Virus record (IMG/VR): IMGVR_UViG_2522572023_000008
Source: a virus
Taxonomy: Duplodnaviria; Heunggongvirae; Uroviricota; Caudoviricetes
Length of the DNA: 46,931 bases
Reading direction: 5' to 3' (one strand)
Each line of letters opens with the position of its first letter. Position 1 is the first letter of the stretch. Position numbers: made by a program. Positions 24,001 to 27,000 of this stretch are shown here, one piece after another.

Positions 24001-27000
24001 ACGGTATACACTGGGTACGGATATATTCCTGTGCTCCTTCCAGTTGCTTCTGCATTGCCATCAGCCGTTCTCTGAGGATGAAATAATCCCGTTCAGCGGT
24101 GTCTGCCAGTCGGGGACCGGTTGCATTATCCACGCCGGAGGTGATGGGGGCTTTACGCAAGGAGCCTGGACAGTTGGCGTTGATGCGCAGGCGCTTACGA
24201 CCAGCGGCAACATCAGCACGCAGAGTTTCATTTTCAGCTCTCGCATCGGCTAATTCCCTCGAGTATCTGGCATCAAGTGCAGCGACATCACGCTGGCGTA
24301 CCTGCATATCAGTAATTGTCACGTTCGCCAGCTTCAGCTCACTGGCTTTTTTATCGCGCTGCGCTTTGTAGGTGATGGCGTTATCGCGGTAATGATTCAG
24401 CCCCAGACTAAGCGCACCACAGGCCACCAGCAGGACAATGATAACCACGCACAGAACACGGTTCATATCACCACCAACGGATTGCCCAGACCAGAACAGC
24501 AATGGCCACAATACGAATGGCAAAAGCTGCCGCTCTTGTTAAATCCAGACTGGCTGGCGTCTCCACTTCAATGCCTTTCATAATGGACAACCTCAGAAAG
24601 AATCTTTTATACTTCCTCACAGGGAAAGTACCTCCCTACCCATAATTTCTCCCTTGCCTTACTCAAGGTCAGAAAACACAAAACCCCGCTTGCTGCCAAC
24701 AAACGGGGTTTTTACTTTTATTCACTTAGGTTTTGCCAGTTTTCAGGATTTCGTGTTATCCACCCGCGTTGGCCAACGTCATTTTTCAGCAAAATATTCT
24801 GCTTATCTGTCGATTCCCCAGCACGCCAGCGCGCTCTCCTGGTCACGCCGTGAGACCTGACCGTAGCAGTTATTTGAGCGAATACGGCAGTCTCTGCCAC
24901 CGTCCTTAATCCACCAGCGAATCGCTTCGCAGGCACCTTTTCGATCACCTGCATTAATTCGTTTATAAAACGTCGACGGGAAACACTTACCGGGGCCAAT
25001 GTTGTACGGACAGAATGACGCAATCCCCGCTTTCTGGGGTTCGGTCAGTGGCACTCTGATGTTTTTCTCCACCCATGCCAGCGCCTTATCACGTTCAATG
25101 GCGTTAACCCGGTCGCATTTTTCCTTCGACAGCTTCATGCCAGGAATAACAGGCTTACCATCCACCCGGGTGGCACCACGGCAGATGGTCCAGATCCCCG
25201 CACCATCACGGTATGCCGTGGTGTGGTTACCTTCCTTTTCATCCAGAAACTGGTCGAGGATTTCAGGCGCAGACGCACCTGCACCAATCAGCGCCAGAAC
25301 GGCAGCCGACAGGCCGTATCTGATTTTTGCGTTCATGGATATTTATCAGGGTTTATCGATTTCAAATCCCTGGATATGTTAAGTCTTCAGGCCAGCGGTG
25401 GAGTCTTCAGAGAACCAGTAATTATTCCCGGTAGTTTTCCTCTGTAGGTTATCAACACATCCTGCGCCTCTAAAATTACGGGGCGCTTTTCCGGCAACGG
25501 ACCATCCCCTTCACATAACCCGGCAGCAACATCCATGAAAAACTGCTTCGCCTGCTTTTTCGCCTCAGCTTCGTAAAACTCCAGCGTGGCACCTTCAGTA
25601 CGGTCAAGACTAATCGCCACATCTGGCAACAACAGTGACGGATACCCACCAATTTCCAGTGCCACAGTAACAGTAATCTTATCCGGGTAATTATTTATCC
25701 CTTTAACAACCAGTTCGTATTTTTTCTTCATCGCTTTACTCTCCCCGCGCCGCCTTACGCCGGTCCTCTCTGATTTTGAAATACAGGTTAGTCAGATACG
25801 TCAGCAGGCCAAACAGCAGACTCCCCAGCACACCTATTGCCACCCACTGGGACGGAGAGACTTTGTCCAGCAGCTGCAGTAACCAGTATCCCGTCCCCAC
25901 CGCTGACGTGGTGTATGACACACCTGTTGTGATTTTTTCCATCTGGTACATACCCCGTCTCCCGTTATCCGGAAGCTGACAACAATAAAAAAGCCACCAG
26001 TTAACTACTGATGGCTCTGATAACTCATGCAGGCGTCTCAGACGACCCACTGACACTACCGGTGAGTTTAACGATACCTTCCATTTGACTGGCTCACTTT
26101 TTATTATGCTGCCGGTGCATTTATCTCCAGCATCAGACTTTCTATCTCAACGCCATACGCTGCATTTTTTGTAACATCCGTCAGCGTCAGCGCATTCAGT
26201 CCCAGTGTCAGACTGTCTTTTATAACCTGGAATGCCGGGCCAGCCACTCCATTCAGTTTCGGAGTAACCGTGGCACTGCCGGCGGTGAACACCAGCTCCA
26301 GCGTCTGCCAGTCGTTACCGTAATCGCCGAACTCCCCCAGCTTCGTGTTTCCGGCTTTCCTGTGATGCATCAGATTCACTCTGCCGTCAGTGGTCTGAGT
26401 GAAGTACGACATCAGGAACGGATTACCGGTACCCGTCATCGCCACACCATCAGGAACGGGAGCATCCGTATACAGATAAATCCCCAGCCCGAACTGATTG
26501 TTGGTCAGTGCGCCTGACAGGCGGAACTTACAGGTCAGTCTGCCGCCCTGTGTCAGCAGGGTAATTGCGTCATCCACCGGATGCGTCAGGGACCAGGTTT
26601 TATTGCTCTGCTTGGTGATCTTAAATACACCATCTGACAACTGAATTCCGCCATCCTTAATGCTCCAGCCCTGCGCAGCAGCCTCTCCGGCTGCCGGCAG
26701 CAGGGAGATTGTGCGAACGGACGTATCTGCAGACGGACCCGATGGCGTGTTGCCGCCGGGCGAGGGTTTGATTTCCGGTGCCTTACCACTGATGAAGGCT
26801 GAGGTGCGCCCGGCTGCGTTCAGAATAGCGGTTGCCAGACGATCCGGAATAATGCTCCTGCGCGCCCATGAACTGAAATGTGTCGGGCGGTTTGATGATA
26901 CCTGGTTTCCATTCGTTCTCGATGCCGCACCGTAATATCCTGATGCCGGAATATCCGGATCTTCTGCCGGCGCGTTAGTGGCGGTATTGACGCCGTTACC

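Follow-up and report, generated by a model that had tools for sequence, protein, structure and literature searches.

The lysis cassettes of lambdoid phages are conventionally treated as three-part, consisting of a holin, an endolysin and a spanin. In the Shewanella phage LambdaSo, the membrane protein Lcc6 of 65 amino acids (aa) is required for lysis by a pinholin and a signal-anchor-release (SAR) endolysin. In phage Mu, the small membrane protein gp25 (DUF2730), termed releasin, is accessory to the action of the endolysin. These two recent findings show that small membrane proteins can act as extra lysis factors, and they serve as precedents. The subject here is a gene for a 37-aa single-helix membrane protein that lies directly before the spanin gene Rz in a lambdoid prophage of Escherichia coli O145:H28 (IMG/VR record IMGVR_UViG_2522572023_000008). 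The whole stretch of 46,931 nucleotides (nt) that was analyzed is termed the window, and all of its lysis genes are on the minus strand. Judged by its substitution pattern among relatives, the 37-codon frame is a genuine protein-coding gene under purifying selection.

The 37-aa protein is like Lcc6 in being a very small, single-pass membrane protein found alongside a lambdoid lysis system, beyond the holin, endolysin and spanin. However, Lcc6, compared here by description only, has an N-terminal helix with a cytoplasmic tail of 43 aa, and its gene is distant from the lysis cassette, while the 37-aa protein has a C-terminal helix, its gene abuts Rz, and it occurs also with endolysins that are not of the SAR type. 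Compared to Mu releasin, the 37-aa protein is much shorter, is not tied to SAR endolysins, and contains no DUF2730 domain detectable with Pfam at E values up to 1. Neither precedent resembles it in architecture. The dual-start holin/antiholin pairs, such as S105/S107 of lambda and S68/S71 of phage 21, are also small hydrophobic lysis proteins, and an in-frame upstream GTG is present here as well. They differ in that the 37-aa protein has one helix, no charged tail, an extension that is not conserved, and an occurrence that is independent of holin type. Finally, the locus has in common with type I toxin-antitoxin loci (tisB/istR-1, zorO/orzO, shoB/ohsC, hok/sok) a hydrophobic peptide of less than 60 aa preceded by a conserved leader, and it has a candidate for a divergent antisense RNA with a promoter and a terminator of its own. 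In the present case, however, the antisense RNA is only predicted, the gene is located inside a late operon where it is probably coupled to Rz, and there is no sequence or Rfam match to these loci.

By length alone, a 37-codon open reading frame (ORF) is not above chance, as 59 ORFs of at least 20 aa are found within 4 kb. Because short ORFs are so abundant by chance, the reality of the 37-aa ORF rests on comparative evidence. In a codon alignment of seven DNA lineages, the numbers of variable columns at codon positions 1, 2 and 3 are 14, 4 and 27. Nei-Gojobori estimates of the ratio of nonsynonymous to synonymous substitution rates (dN/dS) for the same lineages range from 0.03 to 0.36 with a median of 0.06, and from 0.03 to 0.13 once dS reaches at least 0.9; dS itself extends to more than 1. 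This codon pattern and the low dN/dS argue for purifying selection on the protein. Between lineages, only conservative I/V/L/A/M exchanges are seen in the hydrophobic part, and the residues F20, A21, I22 and R23 as well as R35, W36 and W37 are invariant. In protein searches, two variants of the intact protein occur in at least about 1000 E. coli contigs each and a third in 505, and the protein is also found in Citrobacter, while frameshifted or truncated forms occur in about 1–7 contigs each. Conservation of the frame in relatives, which a preliminary description of this locus had put forward as a check, is thus borne out in all seven lineages.

The gene is already catalogued in RefSeq and PHROGs without an assigned function, and it has not been studied in the literature found. 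The call made by the NCBI annotation pipeline (PGAP) in the source genome is identical to the ORF (WP_000675931.1, “hypothetical protein”), and an identical module is present in prophage Sp4 of E. coli O157 Sakai, where the ORF is ECs_1094. A literature search found no published mention of the protein, its peptide sequence or ECs1094. The protein matches the hidden Markov model of phrog_4493 with an E value of 5.5e-16, its residues 1–37 aligning to positions 14–54 of the 56 in the profile; phrog_1115 and phrog_3246 are related families. A family profile search of 1.84 billion representative proteins returned 23 clusters, which form a small, coherent family. Its divergent members share an MKxG(I/L)E(V/L)(D/E)xP N-terminus, the motif AFA(I/V)R, and a C-terminal (R/K)WW.

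The architecture of the protein is simple. Its N-terminal 16 residues are hydrophilic and slightly acidic, and they are followed by one hydrophobic window of 19 residues (Kyte-Doolittle value 2.1) with practically no tail after the helix. The helix is rich in alanine and contains the invariant arginine, and the protein ends in RWW. A holin or antiholin identity is not supported, since no Pfam holin matches and RWW directly follows the single helix in place of a charged hydrophilic C-terminus. Nor does the protein qualify as a spanin, as it is 37 aa long, has a C-terminal helix, contains no lipobox and matches no spanin PHROG.

The junction between the small gene and Rz is tight. The TGA of the ORF (24470–24468) is separated by one base (24467) from the ATG of Rz (24466–24464), so that the two genes are adjacent in the arrangement TGA-T-ATG. 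The preliminary description was mistaken in having the stop codon overlap the Rz start, while the 336-bp spacer with its hairpin and the 37-aa hydrophobic ORF with its Shine-Dalgarno sequence, which it had also reported, are both present as described. The last two tryptophan codons and the stop codon of the ORF form the sequence GGTGGTGA. The element GGTGGTGA(T/A)ATG is kept 5′ of Rz even in two loci (L033 and L034) where the upstream gene is a methylase in another frame. This retention, whatever the upstream frame, suggests that the terminal Trp-Trp-stop doubles as the Rz ribosome-binding site. Translational coupling is likely on this basis, and the conservation of the RWW end is accounted for in part. 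From the arrangement of this junction, Rz translation would be coupled to that of the small ORF.

A GC-rich hairpin is located directly 3′ of the preceding gene in every lineage. In the window, a terminator scan reports it for the minus strand, with a stem of 15 pairs followed by the tail GTGTTTTCTG. It has the sequence features of an intrinsic terminator on the lysis-sense strand, namely a 15-bp GC-rich stem and a U-tract, with the tail UUUUGUGUUUUC. The folding energy is -20.0 kcal/mol for the sense RNA and -13.6 kcal/mol for the antisense RNA, and T-runs are found on both sides. The hairpin is kept in all 16 sequence variants, of which the two most diverged (L105 and L099) fold to only 8 pairs, and the lysis-sense RNA is more stable than the antisense RNA in 11 of the 16. 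RNAalifold identifies three pairs that changed on both sides, with compensatory changes from A-U to G-C and from G-C to A-U. Moreover, G·U pairs are found mainly in the sense RNA, with up to four in one variant of the R21-linked lineage, and these positions become C·A mismatches in the antisense RNA. The compensatory and G·U changes, together with the greater sense stability, imply that the hairpin has been selected chiefly as a sense-strand element.

By these features, the hairpin is most likely an intrinsic terminator that follows the endolysin gene and acts on the lysis-sense transcript; alternatively, it could be a 3′ stabilizer of the upstream message. The T-run on the plus strand also permits termination in the opposite direction. 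The preliminary description had called the hairpin bidirectional and terminator-like: the hairpin and its flanking T-runs stand, but the symmetry does not. The intrinsic terminators of Q-antiterminated lambdoid late operons, downstream of pR′, likewise feature a GC-rich stem, a U-tract and a position at module boundaries, and the present hairpin very probably forms the end of the holin-endolysin module and the left boundary of the small-ORF module. To our knowledge, there is no earlier description of a conserved terminator placed specifically between the genes for endolysin and spanin.

Comparison of lysis cassettes defines the extent of this module. Between the window and locus L005, which has a cassette of Phage_holin_8, Phage_holin_3_7 and an M15 peptidase, homology starts at the hairpin and stops exactly at TGA-T-ATG. 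Such alignments delimit a compact module that comprises the terminator hairpin, a conserved leader and the ORF, and that extends to the start codon of the gene that follows, as a rule Rz. Upstream of the 37-aa gene, four contexts are found: an S21-type holin with lysozyme (the window and Citrobacter), M15 peptidases, a GH108 endolysin, and the heat-labile enterotoxin genes LT-IIA/B. The gene thus recurs behind three unrelated endolysin types, and the gene that follows it is normally a PF03245 Rz. On this sequence evidence, the module is exchanged among lambdoid prophages whatever their type of holin or endolysin. The same comparisons indicate that the gene is attached to the Rz side of the junction but is not strictly dependent on Rz. 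In eight loci (L005–L012) and in phage phiSTEC1575-Stx2k, the ORF is followed not by Rz but by a gene for a 60-aa lipoprotein (phrog_7528, lipobox LVGC), and Rz/Rz1 is absent from the gene calls of these loci and from the phiSTEC1575-Stx2k annotation within the stretch examined. In prophages carrying LT-II (L099–L101), the downstream gene is decaying and the small ORF is intact. In these prophages, the LT-IIA/LT-IIB genes (1–924) lie directly upstream of the module, in the slot occupied by endolysin genes elsewhere. The gap between the endolysin gene R and Rz is, with good reason, regarded as an insertion site for extra genes, including those for an antirepressor, LT-II toxin, a methylase and further small ORFs.

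The layout with a small ORF before Rz is widespread. Among 76 close-relative loci from IMG/VR, in which Rz is at least 90% identical to that of the window, a small hydrophobic ORF abuts Rz in 74. In the other two (L033 and L034), it is a methylase-like ORF, with an S-adenosylmethionine-binding motif in its translation, that ends over the Rz start. The small ORFs fall into several classes. Class A is the 37-aa form of the window, and class A′ is a 28-aa form with further small hydrophobic ORFs upstream; both belong to phrog_4493. Class B, the H-19B type (phrog_6632), has a GTG start and the sequence VFDFSKLIREIR(M/V)MAEKLSTWKFILIWLVFVIMASGYFIGQIRWW. Class C (phrog_4906) ends in ...SGLVG and is exemplified by ECs_1966 of Sakai Sp10, which follows the antirepressor gene. 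The R-Rz interval of phage vB_EcoS-569R3 (L014, 612–1175) contains four small single-helix ORFs in tandem, of which the third (…DDISRALAFAIKWVAVGIAV…) is a class A paralogue and matches phrog_1115, phrog_3246 and phrog_4493.

DNA searches of sequenced phage records returned 276 with class C, 47 with class B and 2 with full class A. In many records of Shiga toxin (Stx) phages, the class B or C ORF is unannotated or is overlapped by an annotated antirepressor feature. Between the class B ORFs of H-19B and Salmonella phage SPN3UB, there are 14, 4 and 20 differences at the three codon positions and dN/dS is 0.13; by this measure, class B is likewise under purifying selection. The seemingly empty gap of 397 nt between the lysozyme gene and Rz of SPN3UB (L117, 960–1356) holds the same hairpin together with a class B ORF of 45 aa that is not annotated. 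A possible extra hydrophobic ORF of 24 aa is also seen in SPN3UB directly after the lysozyme gene. A small ORF before Rz is therefore the typical layout of the Stx-type lambdoid clade of E. coli and Salmonella. This clade takes in most sequenced Stx1 and Stx2 phages, as well as prophages in at least 668 of 5426 complete E. coli genomes. The preliminary description had regarded the cassette as “interrupted” and thus unusual, on the premise that R and Rz are normally contiguous. The premise holds for lambda, K-12 Qin and six distant loci, but not for the close relatives of this Rz, and in Stx-type lambdoid phages the supposed interruption is the norm.

The leader preceding the 37-aa ORF is almost invariant in the seven lineages although the synonymous sites of the ORF are saturated. 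It contains the GAGG Shine-Dalgarno sequence (24594–24591), which is located 9 nt 5′ of the ATG. Further upstream is an 8-codon mini-ORF whose TGA overlaps a GTG at 24620, a potential start of a 50-aa form with a basic extension of charge +5, and this site is homologous to the class B ORF start in H-19B. The 50-aa isoform was rejected as a conserved product, as a 1-nt deletion breaks the frame in Citrobacter lineage L105 and L099 has no start codon. A stem predicted by RNAalifold to sequester the Shine-Dalgarno sequence and AUG was also rejected (-6.2 kcal/mol, z +0.67), being no better than in shuffled sequence.

These elements can be combined into a model that, as a whole, is judged slightly more probable than its opposite: a real, terminator-bounded module that encodes a late-expressed, Rz-coupled accessory lysis peptide of the inner membrane. 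The hairpin would terminate lysis-sense transcription after the endolysin, and the small gene and Rz/Rz1 would be transcribed only by the Q-modified, terminator-resistant RNA polymerase of the late operon. If the hairpin acts as a sense terminator, then expression of the small gene depends on antiterminated late transcription. Ribosomes that end translation of the small ORF would sit on the Rz ribosome-binding site (TGG TGG TGA T ATG), and this coupled translation would make the small peptide and Rz together late in infection. The peptide would then enter the inner membrane as a dispensable accessory factor that tunes, but does not execute, envelope disruption. In most Stx phages, this role would fall to class B (phrog_6632) or class C (phrog_4906). 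The independence of the gene from holin, endolysin and Rz sequence suggests that the peptide acts on the membrane or on a host component, not on a specific phage partner. Its independence from holin and endolysin type argues against a specific antiholin, an option that the preliminary description had raised. Its broader suggestion of a small membrane protein that regulates lysis is plausible.

Several observations weigh against this model. No such ORF is found in lambda, where R and Rz overlap (ATGA), or in K-12 Qin, nor is one found at the six distant Rz loci of Atlantibacter, Enterobacter, Pantoea, Pluralibacter, Dryocola and Raoultella. The distant loci come from a scan of GTDB genomes with Rz that gave only 7 loci, and they serve as negative controls that are too few for statistics. 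The gene is therefore dispensable for spanin function as such. As lambda Rz functions in its absence, its product is not obligatory as a spanin cofactor. In GER2, a near-identical ORF is joined to an Rz with a different N-terminal helix from that of the window, so that there is no sign of co-evolution with Rz. The small ORF is still under selection where Rz has been replaced or has decayed (L005–L012, L099–L101 and phiSTEC1575-Stx2k), and this persistence without an intact Rz weakens the case for a spanin-specific role. In addition, the 37-aa protein has no match in Pfam (E values up to 1), NCBIfam, PADLOC or PDB sequences, and its Shine-Dalgarno sequence accounts for only part of the conservation of the leader.

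The main rival is a type-I-toxin-like arrangement or an antisense RNA like lambda OOP. In its toxin form, which is considered unlikely but deserving of attention, the peptide is toxic to the membrane, an antisense RNA of about 100 nt from the promoter at 24584–24613 silences leaky read-through in lysogens, and the upstream terminator is a second safeguard. The arrangement of small ORF and antisense site resembles the divergent small RNA (sRNA)/toxin pairs tisB-istR, zorO-orzO and shoB-ohsC, and the ORF has the small size and hydrophobicity expected of such a toxin. The sigma-70 promoter-like site, with 10 of 12 matches, is of a quality seen only seven times on the two strands of the 46.9-kb window (94 kb in total), so that about 0.009 are expected in this 120-nt interval. 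It is conserved and falls within the most conserved 33 nt of the module, but these are the ribosome-binding leader itself, so that its conservation is inseparable from that of the leader, and the leader is missing from classes B and C. If active, the site is predicted to yield an RNA of about 100 nt (approximately 24620–24720) that ends at the hairpin, which follows about 95 nt downstream on the plus strand and has a T5 run. The predicted RNA folds better than 200 of 200 shuffled sequences (z -3.65), and all lineages retain the 5′ A-tract of the hairpin, which on the antisense strand is the T-tract. On the other hand, the body of the putative RNA is poorly conserved between lineages, and the folding energies of the hairpin and its G·U pairs that turn into C·A point to selection for the sense RNA. 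Rfam gives nothing at gathering score in the spacer, only a sub-threshold match to the rimP leader (E 0.63) that is due to the hairpin, and none of 63 published orphan Hfq-binding sites of O157 Sakai is a peak in the identical Sp4 spacer. Together, these four observations speak against an abundant sRNA. No homology to a known toxin or antitoxin family was found in Pfam, NCBIfam or Rfam.

The remaining rivals concern the peptide itself. One holds that the ORF is only a cis-acting coupling leader, which delivers ribosomes, and perhaps membrane proximity, to the Rz/Rz1 start, and that the peptide has no function. The one-base spacing of stop and start, the Rz ribosome-binding sequence inside the last codons, its retention before N-ATG whatever lies upstream, and the presence of unrelated-looking hydrophobic ORFs (classes A, B and C) in the same position are all as this account would have it. 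It is nonetheless improbable, as dN/dS values of about 0.03–0.36 and the invariant FAIR/RWW and N-terminal motifs indicate selection on the amino acid sequence, the ORF is intact where Rz is absent or decayed, and lambda, Qin and the distant relatives translate Rz without such a leader. About equally improbable is a lysogen-expressed accessory gene, or “moron”, that modifies a host membrane protein or excludes superinfecting phage and is unrelated to lysis. That the R-Rz gap is a hotspot for accessory genes (ant, LT-II, methylase), and that defective prophages such as Sakai Sp4 often carry the gene but sequenced free phages rarely do (the two full class A records), would fit a moron. From the hairpin to the ORF, however, no promoter on the sense strand was found, and that stretch is not conserved; the terminator is upstream instead of downstream; the position abutting Rz is fixed; and PADLOC returns zero matches for class A, B or C proteins. 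The notion of a non-functional insertion or recombination remnant with a chance ORF, which had been offered in the preliminary description, draws on the abundance of chance short ORFs and on the mosaic joints on both sides. It is rejected, with hardly any probability left to it, by the codon-position pattern, by dN/dS and by a frame that is intact in thousands of contigs, in at least four cassette contexts and in Citrobacter.

A bolder extension of the accessory-peptide model is also conceivable. Classes A, B and C could be an unrecognized functional component of lambdoid lysis cassettes, those of most Stx phages among them, membrane-active, that controls or replaces part of the last step of envelope disruption, and in cassettes of the phiSTEC1575-Stx2k/L005 type the 37-aa peptide and the 60-aa lipoprotein (phrog_7528) could form a minimal, non-canonical spanin replacement. 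This extension is regarded as quite doubtful.

Table 1. Features of the lysis region of the window, and the 60-aa lipoprotein context in related loci
Feature	Coordinates	Strand	Identification and remarks
SASA-family esterase	26104–27954		
Class II holin, phage 21 S type (family with pinholin), start of cassette	25736–25951	-	Pfam PF04971 Phage_holin_2_1, E 1e-32; PGAP
YdfR/DUF1327 gene, 114 aa, between holin and endolysin	25387–25731	-	Pfam PF07041, E 1.7e-46
Endolysin (phage lysozyme)	24803–25336	-	Pfam PF00959, E 1.4e-24; phrog_7 endolysin
Endolysin-Rz gap	24467–24802		336 nt
Intrinsic-terminator hairpin (most likely), with 5′ A-tract and 3′ T-tract	24667–24725 (stem-loop 24680–24712)	-	Terminator scan and folding
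8-codon mini-ORF, MGREVLSL-stop	24617–24643	-	Shine-Dalgarno AAGGGAG; sequence and ORF list
Near-invariant 33-nt leader AAGTATAAAAGATTCTTTCTGAGGTTGTCCATT	24582–24614	-	Holds GAGG Shine-Dalgarno of 37-aa ORF; seven lineages
Sigma-70 promoter-like site TGGACA-18-TATACT, antisense to lysis genes	24584–24613	+	10/12 matches
37-aa single-helix membrane-protein gene, class A	24468–24581	-	WP_000675931.1; Sakai ECs_1094; phrog_4493
GGTGGTGA, last two Trp codons and stop of small ORF, probably doubling as Rz ribosome-binding sequence	24468–24475	-	
Rz i-spanin	23999–24466	-	Pfam PF03245, E 1.4e-46; phrog_13 Rz-like spanin, E 1.9e-74
Rz1 o-spanin, embedded in Rz	24061–24246	-	ORF list
60-aa lipoprotein context	L005–L012, 1616–1798; L118 (phiSTEC1575-Stx2k), 1355–1537		Cassettes with Phage_holin_8, Phage_holin_3_7 and M15 peptidase

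The other cassette genes of the window follow a familiar pattern (Table 1). The 461 nt around the gap are 100% identical to those of O145:H28 strains RM12761 and RM13516. The N-terminus of the endolysin is hydrophobic and rich in alanine and glycine, by which resemblance it is of the R21/SAR type, and the H-19B record labels its counterpart “similar to bacteriophage 21 R”. The YdfR/DUF1327 gene is a second “interruption” of the cassette, in an arrangement that is common to K-12 Qin and Stx phages. A gene for a PerC-family regulator (23219–23533, minus strand) is located 3′ of Rz, and this layout and the intergenic sequence directly 3′ of Rz nearly match the region upstream of pchA in O157 Sakai Sp4.

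Additional RNA features are found in the window and in related prophages. A terminator-like hairpin with 12 pairs and a T-run (25990–26018, minus strand) lies between the esterase and holin genes, which is where a 2026 preprint locates the PasA/PasC sRNA genes. Directly upstream of the esterase gene are convergent Rfam matches at gathering score to AgvB, an anti-GcvB sRNA (28102–28163, plus strand, 96.5 bits), and to STnc100 (28164–28354, minus strand, 143.9 bits), at the Q-moron site described for sRNAs of enterohaemorrhagic E. coli prophages. The prophage sRNAs AgvB, AsxR and Pas were rejected as the identity of the endolysin-Rz spacer, as they occupy the Q-moron and esterase-holin sites and not the R-Rz site. 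EcOnc11, an Hfq-bound orphan site antisense to the late operon in Sakai Sp10 (L108, 1946819–1946867, minus strand), was also rejected as a counterpart of the spacer, as it is directly 3′ of Rz in a region that is not homologous to the corresponding region of the window. EcOnc10 (Sp12) and EcOnc12 (Sp9) have a signal near-identical to that of EcOnc11 and may be its counterparts. A full-length Rfam match to the sok antitoxin RNA (33675–33849, minus strand, 113.5 bits) indicates that a type I toxin-antitoxin locus of the hok/sok kind is present in another part of the prophage. Rfam also matches the DicF sRNA (41412–41463, plus strand, 76.7 bits). Of three tRNA matches on the minus strand (29130–29203, 29307–29379 and 45954–46040), two are near the Q/late-promoter region, as are ileZ and argO in the Sakai prophages.

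The new findings are the selection on the gene, its association with the 5′ side of Rz in unrelated cassettes, the sharing of one slot by three PHROG families in most Stx phages, and the conserved terminator and leader. It follows that a large clade of lambdoid phages carries a fourth, selectively maintained gene, for a small membrane protein, directly before Rz. Such ORFs may have been included, without being noticed, in the classic lysis constructs made from phage 21 and Stx phages. If the peptide were to have no lysis phenotype, the locus would still provide a clean, terminator-bounded mosaic module and a ribosome-binding site inside a coding tail. Demonstration of a phenotype in lysis or toxin release, or of spanin substitution in cassettes of the phiSTEC1575 type, would raise the significance. 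Lysis timing sets the release of Shiga toxin and LT-II, and a modulator at this position, if that is what the small gene encodes, would matter for both pathogenesis and phage biology.

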